Virus record (IMG/VR): IMGVR_UViG_3300035670_000275
Coordinates: 1-53,943 of that record
Source: a virus
Lineage: Duplodnaviria > Caudoviricetes
DNA: 53,943 nt
Reading direction: 5' to 3' (one strand)
Each line of letters starts with the position of its first letter. Position 1 is the first letter of the stretch. Below are positions 13,309 through 31,400 of the stretch, one piece after another. The notes beneath the pieces are model-generated. The model was not told where the DNA came from. It did not search any database and saw only the letters and a list, made by a program, of their open reading frames with translations. The position numbers and the translations under genes were made by a program.

Positions 13309-13963
13309 TATACATATACCTCATGAGCTACGCCAGTTGAAACGCCAGCTTCGTAATTATCAGCTCCAGCGCTGGAGTATGGTCTATTTAAATAGTAAGT
13401 GTTTGCAGTACCATTGGATGATCTGATACAAATAGAATACGTTGTCGCTGTTGCTAACGAACTATTATCTACGAAATATATTGTGTCAACAACTGGCGTT
13501 GATGATGTGTTATTATCGTAGTTGTTAGTGACAATACCAGACCATCTATTGCCAGTTGCACCACTAACATTAGTTGCGCCAGCAAGCGGTGTGCCATTTC
13601 TAGTTATCGTATACACCGAGTTGTATCCAGCTTCATTATGAAGCATCCACTTAAGAATAATCTTGTTTCCAGCTTTCTTTGGCGTGATTGTTAAATTAAC
13701 TAAAGCGATAGCAGTACCGTTACCAGAAACTGGTGCACTATAACTGGCTTGTGTTCGTGTTTGAACATATACTGTATTGACAATGTTTCCAGGATAACCA
13801 ATTTCAGTCGCTGTAATTGTCCTGTCTGGCAAACCACCAGCAACTAAGCCTGTAATTGTTCCATTTCCTATTTCTAAAGCCATTATCTATGTATCTCCGT
13901 TAAAACACAACTTGAAACACCAGCTTCATACGAATCTGCACCAGCGCTAGTTACAGTTCTGTT
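12759..13963. repeat. 52-bp perfect direct repeat between paralogs (12759-12810 and 13912-13963)
   Basis: ttgaaacaccagcttcatacgaatctgcaccagcgctagttacagttctgtt occurs identically at both positions. Confidence 0.9.
13308..13883 (-). CDS. Short fibre/tip beta-sandwich protein, paralog 2 of 3
   Basis: Same conserved blocks as its neighbours, with TAATG stop-start overlaps. Confidence 0.6.
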   Translation of the reverse strand: MALEIGNGTITGLVAGGLPDRTITATEIGYPGNIVNTVYVQTRTQASYSAPVSGNGTAIALVNLTITPKKAGNKIILKWMLHNEAGYNSVYTITRNGTPLAGATNVSGATGNRWSGIVTNNYDNNTSSTPVVDTIYFVDNSSLATATTYSICIRSSNGTANTYYLNRPYSSAGADNYEAGVSTGVAHEVYV

Positions 13964-14464
13964 GAGATATGCTGTACGAGCAGTTGCACCAGAAGCCCTG
14001 ACGTGTATCCTATATGTAGAAGCTGTTGAAAGGCTTGACTTATCAACAAATACAATTGTTACAGTGGTTGGCGTACTTGATTGATCACCATTTGATTCAT
14101 ATTGGTTTGTACCAATACCAGACCATCTATTGCCAGTTGCTCCACTTGAATTGGTTGAATCTGGTAATGGTACGTTATTTCTTGTTAGAACTAAAACAGT
14201 ATCCCAGTGCCATTCACCAGAAACTGTGAACTCACATATAACTACGTTTCCAGCTTTCTTTGGTGTAATCGTTGTTGTCAATAAAGCCATTTCAGTACCG
14301 TTACCAGAAACTGGTGCACTATAACTAGCTTGAGTTCGCGTTTGTTTTTGTACTACTTGTACAACTGCGCCAGGATAACCAATTTCAGGTTCAGTAATGA
14401 TACCTAATGGTAAACCACCTGCTGTAATACCAGTGATTGTTGTATCTCCGATTACAATCGCCAT
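13883..14464 (-). CDS. Short fibre/tip beta-sandwich protein, paralog 1 of 3
   Basis: Same conserved blocks, plus a GAVVQVVQ...TTITPK pattern common in fibre-tip proteins of aquatic phages. Confidence 0.6.
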   Translation of the reverse strand: MAIVIGDTTITGITAGGLPLGIITEPEIGYPGAVVQVVQKQTRTQASYSAPVSGNGTEMALLTTTITPKKAGNVVICEFTVSGEWHWDTVLVLTRNNVPLPDSTNSSGATGNRWSGIGTNQYESNGDQSSTPTTVTIVFVDKSSLSTASTYRIHVRASGATARTAYLNRTVTSAGADSYEAGVSSCVLTEIHR

Positions 14465-14466
14465 GA

Positions 14467-15441
14467 TTAATTAACCTTCTTTTTAATTTCTTCTACTTGT
14501 ACAGATAGTTCTTTAATCGCTTCAACTAGTAGAGGTACAAGACGCTCATATTGAATTGTTAGATAATTCTCACCGCTTTTGCTATTTCCATCTTCGTCAA
14601 TATCAAATGGAGCTGGTTTGACTGCTTGTGGTTGTACGGCTTTAACATCTTGAGCATATAAACCAATTTGCTCTTCATAGTTGTTATAACCAAAATCTTC
14701 TGCAAGTTTATTTTGAGTATAGATAACACCAACTAAAGAATTAACTTTTTCTAGAGCATTTTCAATCTGAGAGACTTCATCTTTTAGTCGCTTGTCAGAA
14801 TAGTATGCTGTAATTGTATTTGTTGCTCTTATTTGTCCTGCAGTGCCAGATGCAGCTGTACCAACGCCAATAGAACCAAACTGGTAGTTTCCAGCAGTGT
14901 CTAAACGAGCGATCGGTAAAGTACCAGAACCGATATATCCTGCATTAACATCTGTAATTGGAATAGTGATGTTTGAGGTGCCGTCAAAAGAAGTAGCAGT
15001 ACCTGTTGCCCCAGTACCGATAGCAATAGTTCTAGCAGTTTGTAATTTAGTTGCGTTGCCAGCAATAACAGAAGATTGATCTAGCCATGTTGGTGCGCCA
15101 GTACCACTAGATCTAAGAAGTTGACCTACAGATCCTGCGGCTGAATGCCCTGTTGTATTTACCGCTGTTTGATATGGTACACTACCAGCAACTCCACCAT
15201 TAATATTATTTGCTTGGGTAGCAGTTCCTGATAAAGAAGCACTAATAGTACCTGCGATAAAGTTACCAGATGCATCTCGGCGAACGGCTTTATTCGCAGT
15301 GTTTGTACTAACTGCATCTGCAGTTTCTAGCTTATCTGTATTCAGGTTAATAAAATTGGTATCAATCTCAGTGTTGGAGAGTGGACTATTCTTTACTGTC
15401 GCTCCACCACCTGATGTCACCCTTGTTGTTATTGCCGCCAT
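14467..15441 (-). CDS. Tail fibre protein with C-terminal intramolecular chaperone (peptidase S74-like)
   Basis: GNATKLQTARTI fibre motif. ITAYYSDKRLK cleavage motif, then IENALEKV...GLYAQDV...YERLVPLLVEAIKEL coiled coil. Confidence 0.85.
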   Translation of the reverse strand: MAAITTRVTSGGGATVKNSPLSNTEIDTNFINLNTDKLETADAVSTNTANKAVRRDASGNFIAGTISASLSGTATQANNINGGVAGSVPYQTAVNTTGHSAAGSVGQLLRSSGTGAPTWLDQSSVIAGNATKLQTARTIAIGTGATGTATSFDGTSNITIPITDVNAGYIGSGTLPIARLDTAGNYQFGSIGVGTAASGTAGQIRATNTITAYYSDKRLKDEVSQIENALEKVNSLVGVIYTQNKLAEDFGYNNYEEQIGLYAQDVKAVQPQAVKPAPFDIDEDGNSKSGENYLTIQYERLVPLLVEAIKELSVQVEEIKKKVN

Positions 15442-15473: not shown

Positions 15474-16193
15474 TTATTTAGCTAAAAAAGATTCCATGTA
15501 TTCGTCATATGTTGGAATAAAACCACCCTCATATGATTTTAACTGTTTTTGTAGGAATTCTTTAACTTGTTTTTCTCTGATATCCACATAAAACCTTATC
15601 ATATACATTGGTTTATCGCTGTAATTAAAGGCATTATGGTAGTGGTAACTATTAAAAACGTATAGTCTACCGTTCTCGTATTGTGAATCGTATTGTGAAA
15701 TTGGTGTTGTATGGTCAGCTAGACGATACTCCATAAAATTTATTACACTATATTTTGAGCCTTCTGGTATAGATAAAGGTAACTGGAATACAGAAATCCA
15801 GTCAGGCTGACCAGCTTCGGACATATGGCCATGCCATCCAACAGAGCATCCTGGTTTAATATTCTCAAACCTAGCTAACAATTTCCCACCACCCATAGAT
15901 TCTATAATGCTTCTAAGATATGGGCACTTCTCAATAGCTGGAGATGGTTTAAAATCTCCAGTCCATGGTTCTTCTGGGTTAGAAACAGCCGACCCGTCTA
16001 TACTATAAAGAGCCACGCTATCCCAATTATTATCAACGTCATGTATCGGCATGAACTCGCCAAACCTAAATCCGCTTTTGAATGGAGATAGATCGTATGG
16101 TAAATTCAATAGTTCATTTAACACCCTATCGGCATCAAAATATACATCAGTTGGTAAATGGGCGATATCGTTTAACTTATTTAATGTATTCAC
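15474..16193 (-). CDS. Cupin-fold oxygenase, Asp/Asn beta-hydroxylase-like
   Basis: W..VALYS..G, KCPYLRSIIE, IKPGCSVGWHGH, QLPLSIP, GRLYVFNSYHYHNAFNYSDKP. This is the layout of the aspartyl/asparaginyl beta-hydroxylase family. Confidence 0.7.
   Translation of the reverse strand: MNTLNKLNDIAHLPTDVYFDADRVLNELLNLPYDLSPFKSGFRFGEFMPIHDVDNNWDSVALYSIDGSAVSNPEEPWTGDFKPSPAIEKCPYLRSIIESMGGGKLLARFENIKPGCSVGWHGHMSEAGQPDWISVFQLPLSIPEGSKYSVINFMEYRLADHTTPISQYDSQYENGRLYVFNSYHYHNAFNYSDKPMYMIRFYVDIREKQVKEFLQKQLKSYEGGFIPTYDEYMESFLAK
15475..15482 (-). promoter_or_regulatory. Late promoter-like box (GCTAAATA) upstream of the S74 fibre gene
   Basis: TAAATA core overlapping the last codons of the upstream oxygenase, about 34 nt before the fibre ATG. 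Confidence 0.5.
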
Positions 16194-16890
16194 CTGTATA
16201 TTCCTTCACTGCTCGTTCAACCATATCATACACATTATCATCTCTTAAGTCTGCAAAAAATCTTATGGTTAACCTTGGTGTTGTTACATTGTGATTGAAA
16301 ACATTATGGTAATGATATGCGTTAAAAATAACTGGTGTTCCTGGTTCATATGAAGATTCATATACACGTGGCGCACCATTTGAAAAATCGTTTGTTCTAT
16401 AATCTTTATTTGATATTACAGAGTATTTAAAACCTTCAGGGATGGTTATCGGGACTTGTACAATCATATGGGTTTCTGGGTGATATAACTCAAAAACATG
16501 ATTATGCCAGCCCATAACAGACATCGGCATAAGTTCTTCAACTCTACACAACGCTTTGCCTGCCCCAAGGGAATCAATAACCTCATAGGTATAGGGCATA
16601 AATTCTCTCAAACCAGTCTCTTGAAATTTACCCCATATTCTTTCTAGCTCTCCTGGTCCAGCACCTTCCATCCTATCACACATCATCTCGCCATTATAAC
16701 TATACAGCGATATGTTATTCCACTGACTCTTATCGTGTCCATGGTTGGATTGCATAGTAGCTTCGTATGGAAAAAGAGGGAATGGACAATTTCTAACCTC
16801 TTCTTCAATACGTTTAGGGTCATACTGAAACAAGAGAGGTAGGTGGGGGATATCCCTAACTAGTTCAGCCAATTTCAATGGATTTCGCAT
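16177..16890 (-). CDS. Cupin-fold oxygenase, Asp/Asn beta-hydroxylase-like (paralog)
   Basis: WNNISLYSYNG, MPYTYEVI, MGWHNH, QVPITIP, GTPVIFNAYHYHNVFNHNVTTPRLTIRF. Clearly homologous to 15474-16193. Confidence 0.7.
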   Translation of the reverse strand: MRNPLKLAELVRDIPHLPLLFQYDPKRIEEEVRNCPFPLFPYEATMQSNHGHDKSQWNNISLYSYNGEMMCDRMEGAGPGELERIWGKFQETGLREFMPYTYEVIDSLGAGKALCRVEELMPMSVMGWHNHVFELYHPETHMIVQVPITIPEGFKYSVISNKDYRTNDFSNGAPRVYESSYEPGTPVIFNAYHYHNVFNHNVTTPRLTIRFFADLRDDNVYDMVERAVKEYTGEYIK

Positions 16891-18799
16891 TTCTCTGCCT
16901 TATAAAATTTTCATAAAAATTAAGTATCCTATACCCTGTATCAAAGTTCTTAGATTTTGATGTTTCTATATCTGAAATATTTAGTAAGTAAGAATCTACA
17001 TAATCTTTGGAAACAACCATCCCCAAATCATCACACGTTTTTAATAAAAGATCAATATAATGGTCGTGAAATGTGAAAATGCAAGTTCTTAAAAGATATG
17101 TTACTTCTACAACCTCATCCGTGTATGGTAGTTTATAATATTTAAACTCCGATATATGTTTTTGTCTTCCGTGAACAATGTCACTTATCTCAGCTACTAA
17201 TTCGCGCATGGCATATACATATTCGTTATTTTCAACTTCCAATATATTTTTATAAAGTTGTTTAAAAAAACAGGATGGCTTTTCTATATTACCGAGTTTA
17301 ATATTCTCGTCAATAAGTTGTGGTAATTTAAAAATATATTCACCGTCTCGATCAGTTGCTTCTTTTTTAGTTTTTATCCAACTTTGTATTACCCAATGAT
17401 TCATAAACATAAACTCAACATAATCATCTTTCGTGTAACCATCAGCTTTAACCACAATTTCAACATCTGATTTATATAATGGGTCTTCTGTTATATGATA
17501 TCTTTTAGTTCTGTCATAATCGTCAAACTGTTGGCTGCCTAAAGATCTAGATTTACTAACAGATAATCTAATAGTTTCTATGTTAAATTTTTTCTTGTAT
17601 TCTGGATCGTATGCTGGAGAGTCTGGGAGTAGCATCCACATGTATCGTTCTAATGTATAACCGTGATCGTATTGAACGTCAACTTCATCATAAAATAGTT
17701 CTCTGGTGTGTCCAGGCAATCCCATAATAAATTCTAAGTCTGCTCTAACCTGATATTGTTTGTAAAGATATTTTGCATATTCAATATCAGAGTCCATTGG
17801 GACATTTTTACGTTTGATGTTAGCTAATACAGTTTCGTCTAAGGATTGCAAACTTATTTTGTATCTCTCAGTTAAGCCAGATCTCGCTAGAGGTTCAAAC
17901 GTCTTCCATTTCTTTTCTGGCGATGATTTAGTCATTCCATATATTTCAACGTATGTTGGTAAATCAAAAATATTTTTCATGTTTTCCAAATACTCTGTTA
18001 CCTCAGCATCTTCTTTATAGATGCCAAGATTAGCGTCTAATATTTGAACATAGTTGATACCAAACAATGGAATTTGATCTAAATCTTCATATACTAGCTC
18101 TTGAGGTTTACGGATAACTTTTCCACCGATGCCTCCACCCCATTCACAGAACACACATTCATATGGGCAACCTCTAGTGAGTTCTAATGGTAGGGTTAAT
18201 CCTAAGTTGTTTTTATCCGCTATTTCTTTACATTTAAAAACAATATCTTCGTTACCTTTAATAATACCACCTGGAAATTTAAACTCGCGTTTGTTTGGAG
18301 TTTTACCGCGACCTGTTCTATATACAGAAAACGATACTTCTTTCCAGTTGATCTTATCACCCTCAACCATCTGGTCAAGCATATCATTTATAAACATTTC
18401 CCCATAACTTGTTGGGTCGCAAATAGCGTCTACGAATCTATGTTTAAAAAACCAATCAATATTATTATGCGTGACGTTTAAATGTGGACCACCAAGAATA
18501 ATAATTCTATTTGGGTTACTTTTCTTTAAATCTTCCGCCAAGGACATGACAGCTATATGATTCCATAAGAAACAAGAAAACGCATAAACATCAGCGTTTT
18601 GATTTTCATAATATTCTAAAATATCATTATAACGCATGTTATCTATATCAAGTAACGGTTCCATCCAAGTTACATTATTTGGATATTTACCATTCTTTGT
18701 ATAATAATTTTTAAAACCAAGCCAATGCACTGGAATGCGCACAACTTCAGTTTTTAAATCTATATTAAGATATGATATTTTGACTTGCTTTGTTGCCAT
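16865..18799 (-). CDS. Cobalamin-binding radical SAM enzyme
   Basis: B12-binding-like segment DVYAFSCFLWN...LKKSNPNRIIILGGPH. Radical SAM motif ELTRGCPYECVFCEWG. Also DANLG, ISLQSLDETVLANIKRKN and FIMGLPGHT motifs. Confidence 0.88.
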   Translation of the reverse strand: MATKQVKISYLNIDLKTEVVRIPVHWLGFKNYYTKNGKYPNNVTWMEPLLDIDNMRYNDILEYYENQNADVYAFSCFLWNHIAVMSLAEDLKKSNPNRIIILGGPHLNVTHNNIDWFFKHRFVDAICDPTSYGEMFINDMLDQMVEGDKINWKEVSFSVYRTGRGKTPNKREFKFPGGIIKGNEDIVFKCKEIADKNNLGLTLPLELTRGCPYECVFCEWGGGIGGKVIRKPQELVYEDLDQIPLFGINYVQILDANLGIYKEDAEVTEYLENMKNIFDLPTYVEIYGMTKSSPEKKWKTFEPLARSGLTERYKISLQSLDETVLANIKRKNVPMDSDIEYAKYLYKQYQVRADLEFIMGLPGHTRELFYDEVDVQYDHGYTLERYMWMLLPDSPAYDPEYKKKFNIETIRLSVSKSRSLGSQQFDDYDRTKRYHITEDPLYKSDVEIVVKADGYTKDDYVEFMFMNHWVIQSWIKTKKEATDRDGEYIFKLPQLIDENIKLGNIEKPSCFFKQLYKNILEVENNEYVYAMRELVAEISDIVHGRQKHISEFKYYKLPYTDEVVEVTYLLRTCIFTFHDHYIDLLLKTCDDLGMVVSKDYVDSYLLNISDIETSKSKNFDTGYRILNFYENFIRQRNAKSIEIG

Positions 18800-19817
18800 T
18801 AATAGCCTCGATATAATCTACTTCACTGTTTATTTTCATAATTTGCGAAGAAAGTTTTTTCATTCTAACGCAATGTTCTTCAACCATGTTATTGGTTTTT
18901 AAGTCTTTTATAGTTTTCTTACACCCATTGCATATATTAAACATTTCACACCCAATACATTCTTCTTTCATTGAGTAGAGTTCAACTGCGTTTTGTAATG
19001 GAGTTTCGAACCCACCCTGTTTTACTTCTTTTACAAAGTTGATTGGGTATTCTTTATCATCTCCCATTGCACCGCATGAATAATAATCACCTTCTGGGTT
19101 TAATGCACGGATATGGTCATCACAATCTCTTGCTTGTGGGCAAATATTAGAAATATTTTTTAACCGAGTCATCATCTGCTTGGTATTAAACTCCCAAGGA
19201 TACAACCCTCTATTATATATCTCCACATATGTCTCGTATATTTTACTTAACAGATATGGTTTATCTAACTCACCAGAAGCCATAGCATAGTTCAATTTAC
19301 ACTGAACGTCCATTTTCTTTGCCAGTTCAACGTGTTTAATTGCATGCCTCTCGTTTTCCTCGGATATAACAGCAATAAACCCTGGTCGGTAACCAACACG
19401 TTCTAGGAATAAATCACTAACTGCCCAAAAATCTTTTTCGGTGTAAACCCTTCCGTTTGTTATTAATCTACCAAGCCCATACTGAAAACTTGTAGTCACA
19501 CCAACTCTTGGGTGTTTAAATAATGGAGTCCATAGGTCTGGCTTTTTGTAGAATGCCCAAAGATTTGTTGTAAAACCTATTGTTGTCTTTAGATTATGTT
19601 CATCTAGATAATCAATAATCTTCCAGTAATAATCTGGCTTCATCATCAATGGGTCACCACCATTGACAATAATAGTATTTGTGTTTGGGAATCTTGTGAG
19701 AAAGTCGAAGATATATTGGTGGTCTAATGTAGACGCTTTATCTTCGACTAACTTAGTTGATGAACAGAACGTGCATTTAAAATTACACAGTTCCGTCGGT
19801 TTGATTATCAGTTCCAT
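18765..19817 (-). CDS. Radical SAM/SPASM-domain enzyme
   Basis: IIKPTELCNFKCTFC (CxxxCxxC), NGGDPL, TTNL. C-terminal Cys set ICP...C...YSCG...CIGCEMFNICNGC...HC. Confidence 0.9.
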   Translation of the reverse strand: MELIIKPTELCNFKCTFCSSTKLVEDKASTLDHQYIFDFLTRFPNTNTIIVNGGDPLMMKPDYYWKIIDYLDEHNLKTTIGFTTNLWAFYKKPDLWTPLFKHPRVGVTTSFQYGLGRLITNGRVYTEKDFWAVSDLFLERVGYRPGFIAVISEENERHAIKHVELAKKMDVQCKLNYAMASGELDKPYLLSKIYETYVEIYNRGLYPWEFNTKQMMTRLKNISNICPQARDCDDHIRALNPEGDYYSCGAMGDDKEYPINFVKEVKQGGFETPLQNAVELYSMKEECIGCEMFNICNGCKKTIKDLKTNNMVEEHCVRMKKLSSQIMKINSEVDYIEAINGNKASQNIIS

Positions 19818-20751
19818 AATTTATCTTAAAAGTTTCCAACCAAGTGGAGTTGTCAATATTAATATACAAATCTCTAATTAAAAGAGGGTTAATGGAATCA
19901 TAGTTTTTTGGTGTTGGAAAACCTTGAGATATTTGTTTGGCTATTTTCTTTGAAGTATCTTTATTCAAAAGAAAATTCTTCAAAGACTCTCTACTAGTAT
20001 TATCTGGAATTGTAATGACGTTGGTTATTTCATCATTTTTACGAGATATAAATGTCAAAGAAGAAACCTGATTTATTTCTGAAAAAGGATTATCTGAATC
20101 TAATATATTATTTACATTATCTTTCAAATACTGTTCATCCTGAAACTTATCAGTTATATCACCATCAATAAACAATGGTAACAGATTCCATGCTTCCACT
20201 TCAGATAAATGATTTTTCTTAGTTGGTTTAAAAAACTTAGTAAAGCGATCTAAACAATAATCTAAGAAACTATCATCGCCTAAGAAATAATTAACAATAG
20301 CAAGTTCAATTCTAACTTCGCATGTTTTAGCAAATTCAGAAAAAGTTGTTGTTAGTTTTAATTTCTCTGGTAACTTATATTCTTTAAAAAGAAAAATGCT
20401 GTTATCTAAAACTGGAGTAATTCTAAAATTATGTTTATCTCTGTCGTAATCATATAACTTTTGCAAACCTTCTTTGCTTAGCAAAGCACCAAAGAAATAT
20501 GAATATATCTTTTGAAAACTCACATCATCCGCATAAATTATAACTTTCTGACCAGCAAGGTTCTCGTGAATATCAATAAACAGTTGTTCAATTTTTGCAG
20601 GGGTGATTGAAGAGAAGTTTTTGTACACATCAAAAGAAAATTGGAAAAAAGATTCCTCAGAGTAATCAAAATCTCCAACCCATACATGTTTAGAAACTTC
20701 ATCAATAGTTTCAGGAATAGCTAAAAAACAATTATCGAAAAGATAAATCAT
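19783..20751 (-). CDS. Hypothetical protein of the radical SAM cassette
   Basis: 322-aa ORF overlapping both neighbours. Its N-terminal half resembles 20748-21620. Confidence 0.7.
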   Translation of the reverse strand: MIYLFDNCFLAIPETIDEVSKHVWVGDFDYSEESFFQFSFDVYKNFSSITPAKIEQLFIDIHENLAGQKVIIYADDVSFQKIYSYFFGALLSKEGLQKLYDYDRDKHNFRITPVLDNSIFLFKEYKLPEKLKLTTTFSEFAKTCEVRIELAIVNYFLGDDSFLDYCLDRFTKFFKPTKKNHLSEVEAWNLLPLFIDGDITDKFQDEQYLKDNVNNILDSDNPFSEINQVSSLTFISRKNDEITNVITIPDNTSRESLKNFLLNKDTSKKIAKQISQGFPTPKNYDSINPLLIRDLYINIDNSTWLETFKINYGTDNQTDGTV

Positions 20752-21620
20752 GCTAATATCTCCAAATAATCGACAACCGTTTTATCTAAACCCATCCCCC
20801 ATTTTATGATTAATGGGTCATATTTGTCTTTATATGTTAGCGGTGTAAACAATAATAAGAAACCAGGATTGTCAATTAGTATGTTTACGTTTTTAGTTTT
20901 ATAATAATTGTATATCATTGGGTCTGCTGGGATATAAACATCTTTTCTTAAATGTAGATACAACTCAGCCATATTTTCTATTGTATTTTTATTATAGAAT
21001 TTATTATCTGTCACCCATCCAGTATAACCTTCAGCTACAATATGTTTCATTCTACCGAAATTAAAATACTCATATACATAAGAATCAACAACTGATCTAA
21101 TTTGAGAATAATCTTTTTTGACTATTCTCCATTCAATACCAGAATGTTTTTTAACCCACTGTTTGTCAATGTCAAAACCTTTTAAATCCGATGGCATGGT
21201 TTTAACTTGCTGAAAAGCATTAATAAAACCTCTGATGATTTCTTTGACACCTTCGTGTTTTAGAGTGTTGTATTTTATGATTAATTTAGCTGCAGCAAGC
21301 CTCATTAGCTGAATATAATATTTTTCATTAATATTACTGACTTGAGTTTTAATAAACCTAGAATAGATATTTACCATGTGTTCTGGGTCAGCGTATATCA
21401 CAAACTTCTCTTTATTATTTAGAGAAGGGAAGAATAAATCATCGTTGATAAACTTTTCAGAAGTCTCATATCTGCCGATTAACTCAGCATGTTCTTTATT
21501 TGAATTATAAAAACATGTACCACCATAAGAATGGTAATTTGAACCAACTACTACAAAATTTGAAGAAGGTTCAAATAAAACATCAGGTGATAGGTAGCAT
21601 GAATTAAACAGATGAAACAT
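20748..21620 (-). CDS. Hypothetical protein of the radical SAM cassette
   Basis: 290-aa ORF. MFHLFNSCYL and KFVIYAD match MIYLFDNCFL and KVIIYAD in the next gene. Confidence 0.7.
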   Translation of the reverse strand: MFHLFNSCYLSPDVLFEPSSNFVVVGSNYHSYGGTCFYNSNKEHAELIGRYETSEKFINDDLFFPSLNNKEKFVIYADPEHMVNIYSRFIKTQVSNINEKYYIQLMRLAAAKLIIKYNTLKHEGVKEIIRGFINAFQQVKTMPSDLKGFDIDKQWVKKHSGIEWRIVKKDYSQIRSVVDSYVYEYFNFGRMKHIVAEGYTGWVTDNKFYNKNTIENMAELYLHLRKDVYIPADPMIYNYYKTKNVNILIDNPGFLLLFTPLTYKDKYDPLIIKWGMGLDKTVVDYLEILA

Positions 21621-22362
21621 TAGATGCCTCTTTTTCTAAATCTGACAGTTGGTATGGAGTCAAAAACTCATCCAATATAAGATCTAAGATTGGGAAAATT
21701 AAACAATCATTATTTAAGTAGTTTAACAAAATGTTACCAGAATAAATTGGTTTATCATAGTAGTATTCATAATATAATAAATCATCAAAATTTGGAATTG
21801 ATGCTAAGTAATTCTCGTTAAACACTGGGTCTTGAAATAGATTAACCCAAGTCTTACCAACTGCAGTTGATTCTTTAACAATATTCGGAGTTATGTAATC
21901 ACCCAATTCTTGCTTATAACGGTTAATGTTCTTAATGGCATATAGAATAACCCCATCAATAATACCTTCAAGATCTTTAAAAAGCTGAACATCTTTTTGA
22001 ATCAATAGATCAATTTCATTATCTTTGATAATCTGATCGGAGAAGAATACACCTTCAGTTTCGTTCACTAACTCTAAATCATACATTTTGATTCTGAAAA
22101 GAATCTTGATAATGCTTCTTCTAAACTGAACGAGATCTAATGTTGTCTGACTCTTAATATACTCAATTAAAAGTTCACACCTTTCTTCAAATGAAACACC
22201 TTCTAGATTAATTTGAAAATCTAATTTTTTCAAATTACTCAAATACAGTAAAAAGTGCTTCCCTTTTAGTTTACTATTTTTATAATCTATTTCAATGATA
22301 TAATGATTTTCATCCGTGATGAATCTCTTTAATGTATCAACGTCAAATGGTATAGCGTGCAT
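21604..22362 (-). CDS. Hypothetical protein of the radical SAM cassette
   Basis: True start is probably ATG at 22362 (MHAIPFDVDTLKRF...), giving a TAATG overlap with the upstream stop. 252 aa. Confidence 0.7.
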   Translation of the reverse strand: MHAIPFDVDTLKRFITDENHYIIEIDYKNSKLKGKHFLLYLSNLKKLDFQINLEGVSFEERCELLIEYIKSQTTLDLVQFRRSIIKILFRIKMYDLELVNETEGVFFSDQIIKDNEIDLLIQKDVQLFKDLEGIIDGVILYAIKNINRYKQELGDYITPNIVKESTAVGKTWVNLFQDPVFNENYLASIPNFDDLLYYEYYYDKPIYSGNILLNYLNNDCLIFPILDLILDEFLTPYQLSDLEKEASNVSSV

Positions 22363-22946
22363 TAAATGCTCCCATGGCAAGAAGAATGACAAGAAGAATG
22401 GCAATAACGCTCTTGAAAATCCAAAGTAGCATTTCTATTGGTGGAGATTGCTGTGGATAAAGCTGCAACGAAAGCATCTAGGTCTGCAGCAGATATGGTA
22501 TTATTACCTGAAATTGTTGGAGCGGTCACAGCATTCATAGATACTGAATATGTCGCTTGTTTTAGATTTGTCACGTTTGTTGTATCATAGAATGGCGTTG
22601 TAGCAATAGTTCCGTTTGTATTAAAAAACTTTCTTAGCCTAGCTTTTCTGACCTTTGACAGAGTGACAGCATATGCTCTGAATTGAGTTATAATGGTAGA
22701 AGCTGTGACGTTTGTGTCAGTAATAGCAGCTGCAAAATCTGTTGTTAAACCAGTGGCAGTACCTTCTACTGGGAATGTTCCTGTGACATTCCCATAGTTG
22801 TTCCAATAATAAGTCCTACCAGTTTGTGCGTTTTGGAATGGGTGAGTTGTTGTTGACCATACAATTCCAGCATTGTATGTGTCCCTAATACTGTCCATCT
22901 GAGCAGTAATAGATGCCTTTGTAATATCACTTCCAGCTGTTGTCAT
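22362..22946 (-). CDS. Thr/Ala-rich structural-like protein with C-terminal Cys/His repeat; candidate modification substrate
   Basis: 194 aa. All three Cys lie in the terminal YCHSSCHSSCHGSI. ATGA overlap with the upstream rSAM gene. Confidence 0.7.
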   Translation of the reverse strand: MTTAGSDITKASITAQMDSIRDTYNAGIVWSTTTHPFQNAQTGRTYYWNNYGNVTGTFPVEGTATGLTTDFAAAITDTNVTASTIITQFRAYAVTLSKVRKARLRKFFNTNGTIATTPFYDTTNVTNLKQATYSVSMNAVTAPTISGNNTISAADLDAFVAALSTAISTNRNATLDFQERYCHSSCHSSCHGSI

Positions 22947-24007
22947 TTGTTAACCTTTATATACCTTAGTAATTTTTTAGGAGACGGGCAAATATCACCT
23001 TGCCATTCTAGTTGATGGCAATCGCTATTACAATTCTCAAAAACATCACATTCAAAACACCTATGATCCCTTGCTATCTCGCAACTTATATTATTTAGTC
23101 TTTTCGGTGAAGTTAATAATTTACTAATATCCATTGAGATATCGCCGAAGGAGTTATCTACTGCAGAGTTGGGGCAACCAGAGATGCTACCATCCGCATT
23201 AATTGTAAAGATCTTCTGTTCGCAATCCCTACATCTTATGCCACCATGAACCCCATACAGGCTTGCTTCTTTGATATTATTTATTAAAACGTCGTTATAT
23301 TCTGGTTTAATAGTCTCATACAACTTATATAAGTTGAAGAGCCATTCAGAAACTTCAGCGTTTGTTGGAAATATCTCTGTATTTTTTATAGCATTCCCAC
23401 CAGCAGTTAGACGTTCAAATTGTACATGATTAACCCCTAGAGTATTCAACCACTCCACTAGTTCTAGTTGGTTCATTTCTATGATATTTCTATTTAAAGA
23501 TATATTCAATGTTATATTACAACCTTCTCCAACTAACGTGGCCAGATTTTTCCTCCACAACGATTCTTGTTTTTGATTTTCAAATCTAATATCTTTGTCC
23601 CAACTTGTACAGAAACCATTCTTTAGGACTGTTTTGAAGAAACTAATGTGTTCATCAGTTAGAGTATAAACGAGGTTAGTTGAACACGACCACGATATAT
23701 TTTTCCAAAGCGGGGATACTCTTTCCCAAACATATATCATATCTTCAATTGGAGCAAGGAATGGTTCTCCACCGTGAAATATTATTGAACCACCCTGAAA
23801 AGATGGAAAATCCTCATAAAGTCTGTGAAACCACTCCACAGTTTTATGAGGATCGAAATATATCTTCTTACCGTTAATTCCGTTTGTAAAGCAGTGCTTA
23901 CAATTTAACTGACATGTTTCAGTTGTTTTAAGATAAACTACTAATTCTTTTGGTGCAAAACTGGAAGATAATTTATTTTTGTAAAAAAATACTGGTGATT
24001 CTTTCAT
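22943..24007 (-). CDS. Radical SAM/SPASM-domain enzyme
   Basis: YLKTTETCQLNCKHC, FHGGEPFL, STNL. SPASM-like CRDC...TINADGSISGCPN...CFECDVFENCNSDC...ICP. Confidence 0.92.
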   Translation of the reverse strand: MKESPVFFYKNKLSSSFAPKELVVYLKTTETCQLNCKHCFTNGINGKKIYFDPHKTVEWFHRLYEDFPSFQGGSIIFHGGEPFLAPIEDMIYVWERVSPLWKNISWSCSTNLVYTLTDEHISFFKTVLKNGFCTSWDKDIRFENQKQESLWRKNLATLVGEGCNITLNISLNRNIIEMNQLELVEWLNTLGVNHVQFERLTAGGNAIKNTEIFPTNAEVSEWLFNLYKLYETIKPEYNDVLINNIKEASLYGVHGGIRCRDCEQKIFTINADGSISGCPNSAVDNSFGDISMDISKLLTSPKRLNNISCEIARDHRCFECDVFENCNSDCHQLEWQGDICPSPKKLLRYIKVNK

Positions 24008-24028: not shown

Positions 24029-25246
24029 TTAAAGAATAACGCACTCTACAAGTTTTAAACCTTCTTTCAAGTTTGTCTCAAGAGCAATACCAAAAGAGTT
24101 AGTTGTATCTCCAGCGATACCATGACCGCCATCATCGCAAATTAATGGTTGACCCTTTCTAATTGGTCCAACAACTTTAACTGGCACACGACCACGCAAT
24201 GCGATAGCTTGACCATCAGCTTCATCGTTCATAATGAATGCTGGGTTTGTAGAAACAACACCTAGGACACGTTGGTTCGTTGTGTGGCTGAGAGTAGCTT
24301 CTGCTGCAGTATCATCAGTTGATACCACAACTACTGTTCCAGGAGAATACTCATTATCTGTTGTATATTTTTCTGCCAAGTCAGCGTATCTAGCAGAAGT
24401 TGAAGTACCATATATTACAGCAAATCTATTAGTTGATTGACCAATATCGCCAGTACCATTAGTTCCAGATTTTTGAATAGATGAAACAGTTGGGTTTGTA
24501 ACAAGAGCAATTGTTGGGTTTCCAGCAGTACCATCAGCGTTTGTTATTGTGATGGAGTTGCCAGCTGCAACCGAGCGAACTGCTACTGTGTTATCAGTTT
24601 TTCTAACAACAATACCGTTGCCAGAAGAACCAGAAACGTTGGCTAGAATAGCGGAATATGCTTGGATGTCTGTACCAATTCTTAGACCTAATTTATCCCT
24701 AGCATCAAACGCTGTTGAAGCACCAGTACCACCATCAGCAATTGCTAAATCAGTAATACCCGTGATTGAACCGCCAGTAATATCAACTAAATCTGATTGC
24801 TGTGTTGAAATAGTACCAAGACCAAGGTTTGTTCTTGCGTTAGACGCTGTTACCGCACCAGTGCCACCGTGTTCAATTTGAACAACACCGTTAACGTTAG
24901 AAGCGTTACCAGTAACAGTTCCTGTTAAGTTACCAACAACGTTACCTAGAACATCACCAATGTGTTGTCCGTAAAATCTAACTGAATATAAATCGCCGAG
25001 ACCATCTCTAACAGCTACTGTGTCTGGCAAAGAATTGATACTTGGGTAATTGCCATGAACTTTATCTGCATCTAATGTAGAACCGCTGCCTCCGTGACCA
25101 TCTAATAGTTGAAGAATATTGGTGAAGTTGAATGCGACTGAATCTAGTTTTGTTCCAACTTCTCTATTGATATTATCGAAGTTTTGATCAACTTCTTCAA
25201 TTGTTAGTGGGCGTTCTTTATCAAGTCTTAAGTTAATAGCTGCCAT
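24029..25246 (-). CDS. Tail fibre/spike protein with C-terminal autoproteolytic chaperone (peptidase G2/IMC-like)
   Basis: LDADKVHG and GGTGA..A..AR.NLGL fibre repeats. [11 protein letters not shown]...PGTVVV...[14 protein letters not shown]...[18 protein letters not shown]. Confidence 0.82.
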
Positions 25247-25496
25247 TGCTTGCCTTTTCCAATATTTGTTTTAGCATTGATTTAATACTATGTACATCAT
25301 CTTTGATACTATTTATTTCATTTTGTATAGAGGTAATAGCATCTGAATTACTTCTATTAATTTCAGCACCACGTCTAATCATCTGTTTACTTTTTAGATA
25401 GGATTTATACGTGGTGCTGTCAGTGTTAACGACACCACCGTTGGCGGTGTCCTTCATAAGGTTTGAATATCCTTCAACTTTTGTCAAATTCATCAT
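25233..25496 (-). CDS. Small coiled-coil protein following the large structural protein
   Basis: [19 protein letters not shown] followed by the heptad [20 protein letters not shown]. Overlaps both neighbours. Confidence 0.65.
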
Positions 25497-28400
25497 GATA
25501 GGGCTAATAGTCTCAGGTTTTTAATTTTTGGTACAAACGCTGGGTTAGAAGATTTCAAAACAATTTTAATAGAGATATTGTTAAAAGGATCTAAACCAGT
25601 TAAATCAGTTGATCTTTCAACGAAAGTTCCCTCTGGGTCTTTGTTGATAGAAACGTAACCAGTATCAATATATGGTAATTTTCTTAAATCAACTGCGCCA
25701 GACCAAGTTCTGTAATATACCTTAACTGAAGTGTTATTTGGGATATTAGCATCGAACATAACCTTTAATGTATCAGCTGCCTCAGTAAGAGTTAAAGTTC
25801 TTGTAATATAGTTAGCTTCATTGCTGCAACCAAATGGAGCAACGTCATCAACATACTTATCTAACACGCTGATGCTAAAGTCAAGATCAGTAGTAGCATC
25901 AACGGTGGCAGAACCAGCGAATGAACGATCTAGATATACACGAGTTAGATCTAATTCTTCATTACCAGCATATGTTGTTTTGTCTTCTTCGCTAACAACT
26001 TTCTGCACAACATATGTACCATTAACGTTAGCGTTGCAGTTTTCAATTATAATGGTTTTACCAATACCAACAGATGCCAAGATGTTATCAATGGTATCAA
26101 TATTAGAACGAATAACGCCAACCCCACCAATATTCTCAAACACTAAGTTTGGTGCAGAGCGAATATAGAATGGTGTAGAAGAAGAAATTGCAGTAGTTGC
26201 TGTTCCTGTTAATGTAATGCTAGTGTTACTATTAACAGTGCTAACAGTACCGATTAATGCATTATCGCTAGTTCTATAAAGTTTATTACTTACACTTCCC
26301 GTAACTTGAGTTGTGAAAGTTGTCCCAGAACCAGTTACAGAAGTACCACTAGCAGAAGTAATAGTACCTGTACCAGTTAGAACCAAATCAGCATTAATAA
26401 TATCACCAGCTGAAATAATAGCACGTTTATCAATTTCTGTAACGTTGATGTTTGCTGCAGTTACATTATTGATTTTGTTAGCGATTGCAAACGCAGAGGT
26501 TTGTACGATATCAACAACTGGAGAAATATTATGATTAGTTGAATACAACACTGATTTCACAAGCAGAGATGATTGTTTAACTAATGGAGATTCTGTAATA
26601 ATATCTTGGTTTTCAAAAGAACAAATATGACCACGTGTTGTCAGGTTATAGTTGTTATTTGGTACTAGAGGAGTCCAAGCAGTAAATGAACCATCTTCTA
26701 GTTGCATTTTGAAATAATACTCAATCTTTGTATCTTGTAAGATTACATCTGAATTCTTCAAGAAAAGTGTATCAACTGGGAGGCAACGGTTACAAGTAAC
26801 AGTGTTTCCGCCATATTCACCCTTTGTGAAGTCAGCAGTTGTTCCAGATAATAGATTATTTCCGTATACATCAGTTGTCACCAAGTTAATAACAAAAGAA
26901 TCTGTCTCTAAACCTTCAGAAAGAACAGTGTGTTCTCTATTCAGTAATGTATGTGGGATACCTTTTGTTGTGTCGGAAGAACCATAATAGCCTTCTGGTA
27001 CATCACTTATATAAGCTATTTCACCTGCAATCATTCCGTGATTTCTAGCCCAAACACGAATCTTTGTTGTGTTTGGTGTGATCTCAAACGGATTAACATC
27101 CAACAAATATCTTTCTGGTGGTATTGTTCTAAAGATAACCTCAGACGCTGTTCCAATGTCAAACTTAGACTTATTCAAGTAGAACTTAACATCCAACAGT
27201 GGGTGGATTTCCCATTCTCTTGAGTTCTGAGAAGCATACAACGAGCCAGTCAATGGTTGACCTGCAATTGTATTGTTTGTCAAAATATCATCTTGACCCA
27301 TTTCAGAAACATAAATTCTAGCTCCTGGTTCATCAGTCATGATAACAAGGGCATAGGTTTCTGAGTCTTGTAAGTATATTGGGGCTTTAAATTTAAATGT
27401 AGTTGCAATAGAACTATCATCAGAAACATTAATTTCTTGTATAGTCTTAGTCACAGTTGAGAATGGGACAACCTTAGATGAAGGAACACCATTATCAGTA
27501 TTTCTAATCTCAACAGTAATTGGTCTGTTTCCAGAAACCTCAAAGTACAAATCAACAGAAGAAACAAACACACCGCCAACAGAGTTAATAGTGAATGTTT
27601 GTGCTAGGGGGTCAACTGTATGTTGGTAAATAACTTTAGAGTTTGTTGTGGTTCTTCTAATAGTTGGTTTACTTGTTGAACCATTTTGGTCAAATACTTC
27701 TTCTGATGTGAATCCAGCAACTCGGCTAGAAACAATAGTTCTTTCTTTAGTTAAAGAAATACCTTGAGCGAAGTAAGTTGCTCTACCAGTAGAGTCATAT
27801 TGGTTATCGCTATTAGAAACGTTATCTGTTAACTCAAAAGATTTTTCACCGCAACGGAAACTTAAAGTTTCATTTTCTGGCAATACAAACACACCACAAG
27901 CGTTACCTTCTCTATCAGTTATTAACTTATCTCCGTAAGAGCTTAGAGTAGGTGCAGTTGAAGTGCTTGTTGAACCATTGATTTCTGTTAATGTTACAGC
28001 GTTGAAGTTAGAAGTATTTTTAAGATTTACTGAACCACCTAATGTTTCACCAACAGCAAAACCATGTTTAACGTTGATTACAAATAGCTCTTGATTCTTA
28101 ATTCCATACGCATCATAATCGTCAGTTGGGTGCGCATAACCACCCAAAGCAACAACACATGATGCTCTGTAACGGTATAATTTACCTTTATTTCCATTGC
28201 TGTATGAAGCAGTGGAGTAAGTATCAAACGGTGAAATTAGAGAACCATCGAGAGTTTCTAAGATAAGCGCATTTCCGCTAATAGAACGAACTCTAAATGT
28301 TTTCAAATTCAACTGTTTTGCAGTTGCAGCGTTTGTTGTAATATCAACGCTTGATGGAATACTCTGGTTTTCTTTTAGATCAAGAAGGTTAACCTGAGCT

Positions 28401-31400
28401 GTTGCTTTATAATGGTCAAGGTTGTACATAACAACGTGATGGCCAGGTTTAATATTAACAGCATCAGCTACAGTAACTGTAATTGTCTCACTATCCGTAA
28501 TAATAGGAGCAATAGCGTTGATGGAAGTTGCAGTATGAGGGGTGTTCATTAACACATCACCGTATGCAAATGCCTGTTCTATCTTACCTTTAAATGCTCT
28601 AGAATTAGTGTCAGAGATAACATTATTGATCAGATCATCCCAAGCAAATGTCATAAGGGATTGGCCAATACGCGAAACTTTAAATTTATCCGCTGGGACA
28701 ACATATTCTTGCACAGAGACGTTATCAAAGAAAGGATAGAAACGTGTTAGAGGCTTTAAGTTCTGAGCAATAAAAGAAATAGGTCTAGATCTCATGTATG
28801 GGATATATGACATATCCACCACGCGATCACCATATGATTGAGTATTTACAGAAGATGTTACATTGTATTCAGTTCCAGTTCTAGTTTGGTAACCATACTG
28901 ATCAATAATAGTTGTTTGATATCCTGTAATCGTATTACCAGATCTAGATTCAGACGTGAAACTGGATACGTTTTTACCAACCCAGTGATCAACCCAATCA
29001 TCCCACTGTGTACCAATAACTTCTTCTACGATATACTTAATAGCATCATAGTTATTGTCGTCTACTGCAACTAAATCTGGATTTCTAGTAGTTGACTTCC
29101 AACTATCAGATGGTGGGTATAAATCAACGACACCGTTAAATGTACCAAACGCAAGAGTTTGGATGTCCATAGAACGAGTTGCATGTGGGTTAAAGATAAA
29201 TGGTTCTTCTGTAAATGGTAATGTGATAATATCACCAGTTTTAGAATAATTTTTATTTGAACGGTCTGTTGAAGAAGAAACATCTTCAACCATTTCAAGA
29301 GCAACAGAATTGTACTTTGGACGAAGGATTCTATTCTTTGAATCAATAGATATTTTATAATCTTCGTTCTTAACATCACCGATATTGTGACCAGTAAATT
29401 GATCAACAATAAAACCGTTCTTGAATCTATCAAGACCAGTAGTTTCGTCGATAACTGTCATAGTTTCAGTTTGTTTCTCAAGCAAACTTAGAGTCACATA
29501 ATATTCTAAATTAGAAATTCTACGCTCAAGTTTACCGATATCCTGCATAGTATATCTTCTATTTTCTCTCTGTTTGATGATAACATCTTTAACATCTTTA
29601 GTGTATGGAGGAATAGAGATAGAAGCTAATACCAAACCTTCTTGTGGGTCAATTGGTTCCTTCGGTGTAGGTGATGGAACGCCACTTAGAATATTGAAGT
29701 TACCAACAGAATCCAATACTAATTTATCAATTCTACCAAGATAGTTTGCAACTGGTGATGTTAAATCAGAACCAATTTTTGGCAATTCTGGGTAGAAATA
29801 GTTTGCGTTTGTCAGGATTGGTCTAAAGTCAATTACATCAGACAAACAGATTTCTGTTTTAGTGCCAGTGGCATCAGTTGTTGTGTAATATGGAATTTCA
29901 TCATATTGAAGATCTGACGAAGAATACACATATGAATCAACTGAGAAATAGTTACCATTTGTTCCAGCCACGGAGAAGTAGTCGTACACTGCACGAATTG
30001 CTCCGTTTGGAACTTGATATCCTGGTTTAACTATTAGTTTAGCGTTTGTATAGTATGTTGGTCTTTGACCGTTGTCTAGCGTAAATCTATCAGTAATATC
30101 AATTTCAGAATTTTCATCATAAGTGTCATAATCTCCTGGCGTCATATAAACAGCAACTAACTTTAATACATCACCATGAGGTAATTGGATTGTATTTAAG
30201 TTTAGGTTTGTTTTGCCAGTAATTTCTTCGACGTGTTCTCTGTTGATAACTTTAATCTTTTCAACAGCTGCAGTTTTAACCAATTGAACAGATGCAATTA
30301 GGTAGTAGTTACCGTTAGGTACGTTGTTAAATTCAACGTACTTTCTGTTAGTATCATTGTCGAACACAATCTGAGACTCGGTAATAGGCATTGGCTCATT
30401 GGAGTCAGCATTAATTAACAAGAAGTTTGACATGTCAGTTTCTGACAAGAAAGTTTCATCTGTTAATGGTGTTTCAAACCAAGCCTTGTTAGACTGGGTG
30501 TTCATAATTGGCCACTGACGGCGAACAACAATTGTGGAGTTTTTCTTAGTGTCCGCAGAGTTCTCTAGACCTCTAAGTGTCTTAACGAAAGATTTACCAA
30601 CAGGGAAAATTAATGATTCAAACGCTGGTTCTACGATATTTGCTCTAAATACCTGAATTACACCATCTGCAACAGTAGCCAGACCATTTGCAGATAAGGT
30701 GATGCTATTGTTAGTGAATGTGCTAACAACGCCGATTCTAACACCGTTTAGATAAATAACATCATTCGCCTTTAGAGTGTCTGCGAAATAAGTTCCTGAA
30801 CCAGTTATTGATGTAGAAGATGTAGAAGATGTGCCATAACCATCAATTGTCATTAATGATGGGTCAATGTTACATGTGAAATTGCCACCACCACCTGTTC
30901 CAGAAATACTCTTAACCGTACCTTCAAAAGAAGCATTGTTGTACATGTTGATGTCAAAAAGACCCAACTTGTAAACAGAAGAAGTTCTATTAGTATAATT
31001 ACCAGAAGATAGCTGAATGGATTTTACTCTAGCAGTACCAACAATATTTGCTGCAGATACTGAAGCGCCAACAGGGATGTTTGATGTTGTTCTAATTAAT
31101 GGTGCTACTGCGTAACCAGAACCACCGCTAACAATTGTATAACCAGTAACAGATCCGTTAGTTATGGTACATGTAATATTTGCACCGCTGCCAGCGCCAG
31201 TTAGTGGTTGAATTGAAAGAGTTGGAGCCGAAGTATAACCTTCACCACCATCAACAATAGTTATACCAGTAATAACACCAGAACCATTAATTGTGGCAGT
31301 TAAATTGGCAAGTCTTGGTTGTAAAGTTTTTAATAGATAAACTTTTTCAAAAGTTGAAATTGATGGGGCTTTGTATAAATTTGTTACATTTACATAGCTA

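Follow-up and report, generated by a model that had tools for sequence, protein, structure and literature searches.

The closest described systems in which radical S-adenosylmethionine (rSAM) enzymes mature whole proteins appear to be the HXS anti-phage system of Pseudomonadota and the Crp system of Methanococcus voltae. HXS, as far as described by Li et al. (Nat Commun 2026, PMC13128918), consists of the effector HxsA, the rSAM enzymes HxsB and HxsC, and HxsD, and its modification maps to one repeat motif, SHRSS, with a shift of +8 Da. For Crp, the available account (PMC13692751) presents the SPASM enzyme CrpC, the Cys-rich protein CrpA and thioether (ranthionine) crosslinks. Here we describe a cassette of nine co-oriented, overlapping genes on the minus strand (positions 15474-24007) of a viral sequence of 53,943 bases, which is the entire IMG/VR virus record IMGVR_UViG_3300035670_000275 (hereafter the window) and by estimate represents ~34% of a genome. 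The cassette lies between two tail-fibre genes and encodes two rSAM/SPASM enzymes (rSAM1 and rSAM2), a class B (B12-type) rSAM enzyme, two cupins (cupA and cupB), three uncharacterised proteins (unk266, unk290 and unk322) and a 194-residue protein ending CHSSCHSSCHGSI (hereafter the tailed protein). We consider it probable, if by no great measure, that these enzymes post-translationally modify the tail of what would be a fibre-associated structural protein. We read HXS and Crp as precedent for such rSAM maturation of whole proteins and the cassette as a member of neither; rSAM maturation of a protein is of a known kind, and what is new is the setting, the fibres of a virion.

As published, HXS resembles the cassette in that two rSAM enzymes and a small helper mature a whole protein with tandem His-x-Ser repeats, with no antibiotic-type leader or export logic in the available description, and three H-x-S units lie inside the Cys-His-x-Ser (CHxS) repeats of the tailed protein. 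By contrast, the cassette has its repeats at the extreme C-terminus with an invariant Cys, has no peptidoglycan-binding domain recognised by Pfam in the tailed protein, includes an additional B12-type rSAM enzyme and cupins, and is sited among viral tail-fibre genes and not in a bacterial defence locus. The match of rSAM2 to HxsC (TIGR03977) reaches 29.6 bits against a cut-off of 267.9 and covers residues 8-90 only, which falls short of membership, and HxsC was absent from the best 25 matches of rSAM1. The models that we take to represent HxsB (TIGR03978), HxsD (TIGR03976) and HxsA (TIGR03979) were not listed for any of the nine proteins among NCBIfam matches at E<=0.1 (for rSAM1 and rSAM2 the best 25 of 38 and 35 matches, respectively, a scope that applies to all NCBIfam results below). 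Crp shares with the cassette a SPASM rSAM enzyme beside a protein-sized, Cys-containing substrate, and differs from it in being archaeal, in having another substrate motif and no fibre link in the available account, and in the predicted recognition domain of CrpC; this distinction is drawn from the description of Crp and not from a sequence comparison.

The named families scoring best with rSAM1 and rSAM2 are the maturases PapB, DarE, DynA and anSME, with near full-length alignments, and the cassette shares with their systems a C-terminal repeat core beside the enzyme. PapB acts on repeated Cys-x3-Asp motifs. The cassette departs from ranthipeptide, sactipeptide and darobactin systems in scores 10- to 15-fold below the cut-offs, in the folded 194-residue candidate substrate, and in having no protease or exporter. 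An earlier reading of the window from its letters (the original prediction) had called the locus phage-encoded and RiPP-like, that is, akin to clusters for peptides that ribosomes make and that are modified after translation. The latter label holds for the enzymes only: we found no short leader-core precursor, leader removal or export/immunity function, and the candidate precursors across related loci are folded proteins of 130-320 aa. Searches with Pfam, PHROG and NCBIfam bear out its observation that no transporter, leader protease or immunity gene is present among the nine genes or their neighbours. We also found no description of a phage rSAM cassette in the literature, where the jumbo-phage papers, as far as available, merely list the genes, in line with the earlier remark that no characterised phage system of this kind is known. 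To our knowledge, the changes on record for virion proteins are cleavage, glycosylation and crosslinking by the proteins' own folds, never rebuilding by rSAM enzymes.

The tailed protein (22362..22946, minus strand) ends RYCHSSCHSSCHGSI, a C-terminal (Cys-His-x-Ser)3 arrangement that marks it as the presumed substrate. Its profile gathered 576 clusters at 90% identity, all unnamed. Among the best 120 of these, the tail [Y/F]CHSxCHxSCHGS[I/L] stands at the end of 119 of 120 homologues, the remaining one being truncated, and not one of the 120 contains a Cys outside the tail; the rest of the protein varies. Tail codons vary synonymously between loci, so that it is the peptide, and not a DNA repeat, that is under selection. 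Pfam recognised no domain in the 194-residue protein. The AlphaFold2 (AF2) model has an alpha/beta fold [predicted local distance difference test (pLDDT) 73, predicted template-modelling score (pTM) 0.71] and yielded no fold match in the PDB at E<=0.001 and only uncharacterised relatives in BFVD. Three of the BFVD entries with this fold (A0A8S5USV2, A0A8S5USJ8 and A0A8S5USJ7) are proteins of 504-660 aa from one uncultured myovirus, which suggests that larger, multi-domain forms of the family exist. A complex prediction with three copies of the tailed protein scored 0.02 against a mark of 0.42 and speaks neither for nor against a trimer.

The arrangement of the genes around the tail is conserved as well. 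Using a degenerate DNA word for the repeat, we retrieved 95 stretches from IMG/VR. Loci L004-L114 hold 84 distinct reading frames with the motif, 50 of which are true C-terminal tails of proteins of at least 100 residues; the remainder are low-complexity or out-of-frame chance matches without an rSAM neighbour. The true tails fall into 19 of type A, ending in I or L as in the window and devoid of Lys and Arg, and 31 of type B, ending in RxRR and represented by the form (CHxS)3-RGRR. In cases with at least 1.3 kb of upstream sequence, rSAM1 is directly upstream of the tailed gene for 19/19 distinct type A and 19/26 type B proteins; of the seven type B exceptions, four come from loci in which an rSAM1 homologue lies elsewhere, one has a different rSAM gene as its neighbour, and the last two are on short loci without any. 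In 25 IMG/VR loci, fibA (the upstream tail-fibre gene) and rSAM1 always precede the tailed gene. All eight loci that reach far enough display the full order, namely a giant structural protein, an 87-aa virion protein, fibA, rSAM1, the tailed protein, unk266, unk290, unk322, rSAM2, the B12-type rSAM enzyme, cupA, (cupB) and fibB (the downstream tail-fibre gene). Some of these eight loci are near-duplicates (L015/L016, L020/L021 and L006/L008). The recurrence of one order in each related locus of sufficient length puts the arrangement far beyond chance. Identity to the window within type A is ~80% for rSAM2, 64% for rSAM1, ~45% for the tailed protein and unk266, and ~30% for unk290 and unk322.

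Type B loci run from the giant and 87-aa proteins through a fibre with the fibA C-terminal domain (37-49% identical to that of the window), a cupin, rSAM1, the tailed protein, unk266, a ~370-aa relative of unk290/unk322, a third rSAM enzyme and 2-oxoglutarate (2OG)-oxygenase-like proteins to rSAM2. The tailed proteins of types A and B align in sequence over their last ~59 residues only; their predicted fold is nevertheless common to both (template-modelling score 0.67 at 19% identity, together with a match to Atu_ph07 gp170). Homologues of rSAM1 that are 39-49% identical occur in the jumbo phages Atu_ph07, Phosso, RSL2, RSF1, FLC6 and relatives, and pPa_SNUABM_DT01, and it was only via rSAM1 and the neighbouring genes that the jumbo-phage forms of the tailed protein were reached. 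The product of the gene after the rSAM1 homologue in Atu_ph07 (gp170) and RSL2 (ORF068) has exactly three Cys and, at its C-terminus, CHSSCHASCHNSRSRR or CHSSCHTSCHGSRGRR; in both phages a cupin gene precedes the rSAM1 homologue, and homologues of unk266 and rSAM2 (the latter 56-59% identical) follow the tailed gene. The (CHxS)3-RGRR form near homologues of rSAM1, rSAM2 and unk266 is found in jumbo phages (Atu_ph07, RSL2 and RSF1), on many viral contigs and in metagenome-assembled genomes (MAGs) of Bdellovibrionota. The co-occurrence of the rSAM pair, the uncharacterised proteins and a CHxxCHxxCH-tailed protein near fibre genes, which the original prediction had named as its support, is thus seen in close relatives and in unrelated jumbo phages alike, and for this reason a dedicated enzyme-substrate system beside fibre genes is the best reading of the locus.

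Whether the tailed protein belongs to the virion, as had also been supposed, is a matter of context and indirect reading. The four repeats of a tailed protein in L047 (2486-3433, minus strand) lead into a Peptidase_S74 domain (44.8 bits), and in L095 (1-1239, minus strand) four CHxS repeats precede two Hint (intein-like) domains (Hom_end_hint, 57.9 bits). Peptidase_S74 is a self-cleaving chaperone domain typical of trimeric fibres, and the S74 fusion therefore places the tailed protein among fibre-type proteins; moreover, because S74 and Hint modules remove themselves, the mature proteins of both loci would again end just after the repeats. Such self-cleaving chaperones (Peptidase_S74 and Peptidase_G2) pervade the context of the cassette, with S74 in fibB, a G2-like domain in fibA and S74 behind the repeats in L047; they explain the folding and trimming of fibres, not the rSAM enzymes, and the tailed protein of the window is without such a domain. 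For Atu_ph07, the available text reports that most virion proteins detected by mass spectrometry are encoded in clusters, one of which is the coding sequences (CDS) 170-215 (PMC6102473). The tailed protein of this phage is gp170, a numbering consistent with gp180-182. The fibre neighbours of the tailed gene, the S74 fusion and the CDS 170-215 cluster together lend indirect support to a location in the virion. Variants of the tailed protein include one with five repeats (L110) and one with six repeats followed by a Pro/Thr-rich linker and a further domain (L049), and in type B tails position 12 may be Ala or Asn. At L044:6766-7583 and L199:6062-6879, a 1979-aa protein ending in the fibA C-terminal domain is followed directly by a tandem pair of tailed genes (137 and 134 aa), and upstream of the rSAM1 homologue of L095 we noted by eye a ThyX-like gene with an RHRSF motif.

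Relatives of the system are not confined to phages. A scan of a genome collection for the repeat gave at least 120 stretches, and the 120 listed include six true tails with rSAM neighbours, all on MAG contigs, three of them labelled Bdellovibrionota, Bacteriovoracaceae or Bdellovibrio. In the Bacteriovoracaceae MAG (L174, G001:C3) the cassette resides on a 178-kb contig with three rSAM genes, the tailed protein and an adjacent S74-domain protein, amid bacterial genes of the ordinary sort (FeoB, an M28 peptidase and a major facilitator superfamily transporter), with a Mu-type transposase nearby. Ten large open reading frames (ORFs) from within ~20 kb on each side of it were scanned; seven have Pfam matches (cellular families and the Mu-type transposase), three have none, and no phage structural family was found by Pfam among the ten. 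Of the 134 plasmid records with distant rSAM1 homologues (24-28% identity), 129 are from Pseudomonas. On pQBR103 (L238:10386-10760) a 124-aa protein with a signal-like N-terminus has the (CHxA)4-RGWR end YCHSACHGACHGACHGARGWR, and its gene lies among five rSAM genes beside genes for GspE and prepilins (type IV pilus or type II secretion). A conserved rSAM cluster with type IV pilus genes on Pseudomonas megaplasmids is on record, in the parts of the reports available to us, as of unknown function (PMC7070040; bioRxiv 10.64898/2026.03.27.714766). The megaplasmid cluster (pQBR103, pQBR57 and the pBT2436 family) resembles the phage cassette in its distant rSAM1 homologues and in the Cys-His-tailed protein among rSAM genes; it differs in the repeat (CHxA, four times), the signal-like N-terminus and in having pilus or type II secretion genes in place of fibres as neighbours. 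The label phage-encoded therefore fits the copy in the window and does not extend to the family, given the cellular context of the Bacteriovoracaceae cassette and the pilus genes on the megaplasmids.

The enzymes themselves appear to be of the kind that modifies peptides or proteins, judging by complete Cys motifs and by best family matches to DarE, DynA, PapB and anSME (below cut-off), and we count this in support. rSAM1 (354 aa; 22943..24007, minus strand; phrog_1802 at 9e-53), which is always directly upstream of the tailed protein in type A, contains CX3CX2C at residues 32-39, CX10GX4C at 259/262-278, CX2CX5CX3C at 317-330 and then C340, as located by regular expression. rSAM2 (350 aa; 18765..19817, minus strand), the most conserved gene of the cassette (79-81% identity in type A loci), has CX3CX2C at 11-18, CX10GX4C at 232-248, the third motif at 287-299 with CX2 in its last step, and then C316. 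Both enzymes thus possess the CX3CX2C motif and the seven-Cys SPASM motif (CX9-15GX4C...CX2CX5CX3C...C) of rSAM/SPASM maturases, with scores of 24.3 and 25.4 bits for the SPASM model TIGR04085, just below its cut-off of 27. The Pfam Radical_SAM score is 34.9 bits for rSAM2 (cut-off 29.5) and 24.5 bits, below that cut-off, for rSAM1. The best NCBIfam matches are DarE (9e-12) and PapB (2.5e-10) for rSAM1, all far below cut-off, and DynA (2.7e-12) for rSAM2, likewise below it; against the CXXX-repeat maturase model TIGR04115, rSAM1 reaches 17.8 bits with a cut-off of 350 and does not qualify as a member. PDB sequence searches with rSAM1 and rSAM2 returned nothing significant. Because the cluster motif begins at residue 32 in rSAM1 and at residue 11 in rSAM2, neither enzyme has room for an N-terminal recognition domain.

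The class B enzyme (644 aa; 16865..18799, minus strand; Radical_SAM 35.1 bits, B12-binding 30.6 bits against 32.1) has TokK (6e-28) and CysS (9e-26) as solved relatives over residues ~56-411, and its match to the KedN5 subfamily (3.9e-39) stops at 134 bits with a cut-off of 700, so that it is not a member. All eight full type A loci have it, against only a few of type B (e.g. L097 and L103), and it is presumed to be a C-methyltransferase. The cupin metalloproteins, cupA (237 aa; 16177..16890, minus strand; in 8/8 full loci) and its paralogue cupB (239 aa; 15474..16193, minus strand; in 6/8 full loci, absent from L006 and L008), are 36% identical and share GWHNHVFE and HYHN motifs; GWHxHxxE and HYHN are invariant in the alignment and fit a cupin His/Glu metal site. 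Both are presumed to be oxygenases. Of the enzyme labels proposed originally, rSAM/SPASM agrees with the complete Cys motifs of the pair, the B12-binding rSAM label goes with TokK and CysS as relatives and a B12-binding score just under its cut-off, and the weakest is the word oxygenase, for which the Pfam score stays below threshold.

From these data we derive the following scheme. The 194-residue protein would fold into a small alpha/beta domain, and its last 13 residues, (Cys-His-x-Ser)3 plus one hydrophobic residue, would be the substrate of the neighbouring enzymes, to which a conserved helix and strand just before the tail probably present it. The two SPASM enzymes most likely make carbon-sulfur or carbon-carbon crosslinks at Cys and/or His; in this phage clade the B12-type enzyme probably methylates and the two cupins probably oxidise or hydroxylate, and the three uncharacterised proteins would serve as helpers or scaffolds. 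Once complete, the protein probably becomes part of the tail-fibre apparatus whose genes flank the cassette, where it may form a distal end that is crosslinked or binds metal. Since Cys and His alone are conserved in all forms (Ser is replaced by Ala on pQBR103), a reaction that depends on Ser is less favoured than chemistry at Cys and/or His or than a crosslinked metal site. The CHxA repeat of pQBR103 and Ala or Asn at position 12 of type B tails weaken the idea that His-x-Ser reacts as a unit to give a three-residue crosslink like that of cyclophane peptides or HXS. Support for modification of a fibre-associated protein comes in addition from the structural context, in which the cassette lies between fibres and the giant protein, the 87-aa protein and fibA are linked to it in type B as well.

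Several points weigh against this scheme. Since all named enzyme families were matched far below cut-off, the type of reaction is not readable from homology. The cupins score 19.5 (cupA) and 19.9 (cupB) bits against PF05118 (the Asp/Asn beta-hydroxylase family), with a cut-off of 22.6, and so fall outside that family, and a sequence search of the PDB with the cupin profile revealed no solved relative. A His-x-Ser-specific reaction as in HXS cannot be general because the repeat of pQBR103 is CHxA. The location in the virion relies on the edge of the published Atu_ph07 gene range (CDS 170-215), and relatives in a cellular context, as in the Bacteriovoracaceae MAG, show that the system is not tied to virions. 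The number of rSAM genes per cassette (three to four in Atu_ph07 and RSL2, five on pQBR103) exceeds the apparent need of a 12-residue tail, a surplus that hints at further substrates. Finally, three Cys and three His could simply bind metal unmodified.

The last point underlies the alternative that survives best, which we nevertheless regard as unlikely: a fibre-associated protein would end in an unmodified tail that binds metal (Zn, Fe or Cu), the enzymes would act on the flanking fibres or the giant protein, and the tailed protein would travel as part of the same fibre. Metal sites formed by His repeats occur in phage fibre tips, and three Cys and three His at i/i+4 make a plausible site; moreover, the cassette is accompanied by the fibA C-terminal domain and the giant protein no less faithfully than by the tailed protein, and the three to five rSAM genes per cassette would be easier to accommodate. 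On the other hand, rSAM1 adjoins the tailed gene in nearly all loci and is translationally coupled to it by an ATGA overlap, tail and rSAM genes occur together on pQBR103 and in the Bacteriovoracaceae MAG, where neither fibA nor the giant protein accompanies them, and C-terminal Cys repeats beside SPASM enzymes are the usual substrate arrangement (the PapB and CXXX-repeat matches being far below cut-offs).

The absence of a protease or exporter in or beside the cassette bears on a second alternative, in which the 194-residue protein is a long-leader precursor and its tail is converted by the enzymes into a small product for release (peptide, cofactor or metal chelator), active inside or outside the infected cell and no component of the virion. 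We consider this improbable: a conserved folded domain makes up the N-terminal part, the tailed protein of L047 has an S74 fibre-chaperone domain fused to it, the tailed gene is always among fibre genes, and the virion gene cluster of Atu_ph07, as far as reported, begins at gp170 (PMC6102473), even if the core is C-terminal, the enzymes are of the kinds used for peptide natural products and peptide-derived cofactors, and the RGRR end of type B could be a processing or recognition site. Action of the enzymes on a non-protein substrate (a nucleotide, DNA, sugar or lipid, e.g. in making a cofactor or modifying the host envelope), with the tailed protein unrelated to the chemistry, is very improbable. 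It gains from TokK and CysS, the closest solved relatives of the B12-type enzyme, acting on small molecules and from the lack of any family assignment that reaches threshold, and it is at odds with SPASM enzymes whose full auxiliary-cluster motifs go with best matches to peptide and protein maturases, with the absence of nucleotide- or sugar-handling genes from the cassette (Pfam, NCBIfam), and with the co-occurrence of enzymes and tail across phages, predatory bacteria and megaplasmids. Least probable of all is that the cassette is a counter-measure to or mimic of bacterial HXS defence, its own matured His-x-Ser protein interfering with the host's periplasmic block of DNA entry or excluding competing phages, since the likeness in two rSAM enzymes and an HxS-repeat protein, and the action of HXS at the step of tail DNA delivery (as described in PMC13128918), are set against the lack of specific homology to HxsB, HxsC or HxsD, the reported restriction of 99.7% of HXS systems to Pseudomonadota when the cassette is widespread in environmental myoviruses, and a phage protein in which neither a peptidoglycan-binding domain nor a signal peptide was seen.

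If the tail is modified and on the fibre, this would add a new layer of chemistry to host recognition or stability. Such chemistry would be present in hundreds of environmental phage lineages, by the 576 clusters of the tailed protein at 90% and the 644 clusters of unk266 at 50% identity, and common to prey-attacking bacteria and plasmid-borne pili; for enzymologists, SPASM and B12 enzymes would come with a defined, invariant 12-residue substrate. A wider proposition, which we put forward tentatively as possible and as yet short of probable, is that an extracellular fibre protein of viruses, of predatory bacteria and of megaplasmids with pili has its Cys-His end rebuilt by rSAM chemistry of the natural-product kind into a crosslinked, methylated and oxidised non-proteinogenic tip, possibly metal-binding, for contact with the target cell. 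It would then be the first case in which rSAM enzymes modify a structural protein of the virion, and its adhesin ends, built after translation, would form a new class. The cultured phages Atu_ph07, FLC6 and S13 (the latter two Burkholderia phages) and plasmid pQBR103 are carriers that make the cassette directly testable.

Within the window, the nine ORFs are all on the minus strand and every junction overlaps, by 4 (ATGA), 1 (TAATG), 17, 4 (ATGA), 35, 35, 26 and 17 nt in order of transcription, as originally described. The 1-nt overlap presumes the ATG at 22362 as the start of unk266, from which the homologues align; the longest ORF, starting from a TTG at 22404, would overlap by 43 nt. unk266 (252 or 266 aa; 21604..22362, or to 22404 in the longest ORF, minus strand; phrog_20767 at 7e-24) belongs to the core of the cassette, with homologues in both type A and type B loci, and the 644 clusters of its family (E<=1e-3) shrink to 449 at 1e-10. 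Its AF2 model is mostly helical (pLDDT 82, pTM 0.82); neither a PDB match at E<=0.001 nor a Pfam or NCBIfam family was found. Its invariant residues are Pro, Ser, Tyr, Asn and Gly, and do not look catalytic. unk290 (290 aa; 20748..21620, minus strand) evolves fast (~31% identity among type A loci) and has no family, and unk322 (322 aa; 19783..20751, minus strand) is its distant paralogue (about 30-33% identity among type A loci). With hhalign, an N-terminal domain of ~90-115 residues proved common to unk290, unk322 and the ~370-aa type B proteins (alignment A4 against A6, probability 96.5, E 9e-10; A4 against A5, probability 84, E 7e-6), and the ESM Atlas gave nothing usable for unk266 and unk290. 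Because the SPASM enzymes have no space for a recognition domain, a reasonable guess is that the uncharacterised proteins act as helpers or scaffolds, like HxsD with HxsC. Some unk266 relatives (P0203, P0214, P0215, P0220, P0229 and P0237) have acidic, disordered-looking N-terminal extensions of 200-340 residues, as in RSL2 ORF070; the longer members of the family were inspected for unk266 fused to the tailed protein, and their extensions proved acidic, without CH repeats and uninformative.

PHROG searches revealed that the minus strand of the window holds the structural module of a T4-like myovirus, in the order baseplate hub with lysozyme, baseplate wedge proteins, a 2392-aa structural protein, the 87-aa virion protein, fibre genes, head-closure proteins and large terminase. 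Megablast of the window against cultured phages did not find a close relative, nor did these phages yield a match to the tailed protein or to near-identical DNA. The giant protein (2392 aa; 25493..32671, minus strand) and the 87-aa protein that follows it (25233-25496, minus strand), together matched by phrog_358 and phrog_473, are the conserved partners upstream of fibA and the cassette in type A and type B loci. As had been proposed, the cassette is flanked by two tail-fibre genes, both of which have the make-up of phage tail fibres with an intramolecular chaperone at the C-terminus. fibA (24029..25246, minus strand) has PHROG tail-fibre matches and a self-cleaving Peptidase_G2-like C-terminal domain, weak in the window (18 bits against a cut-off of 25) and stronger in the L056 homologue (30.6 bits), whereas fibB (14467..15441, minus strand) has many PHROG tail-fibre matches and a Peptidase_S74 domain of 47.3 bits (cut-off 22). 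A PDB sequence search with the fibA profile yielded no significant match.

Scans for promoters and terminators inside the cassette gave nothing above chance. The T4-type late-promoter word TATAAATA occurs twice in the window, less often than chance expects, and both copies are on the coding strand: one (32704-32711, minus strand) falls within a short gap immediately upstream of the giant structural gene, the first of the run, and the second, from the word scan of the window, is at 36814-36821 (minus strand). The enzyme genes of the cassette have a lower G+C content, which suggested recent horizontal acquisition; this was rejected, as third-position G+C is uniform at 0.19-0.32. Directly downstream of fibB, at 12730-14464 (minus strand), are three tandem paralogues of ~192 aa that match the C-terminal part of the tail-fibre family phrog_6942 and look like alternative fibre tips.

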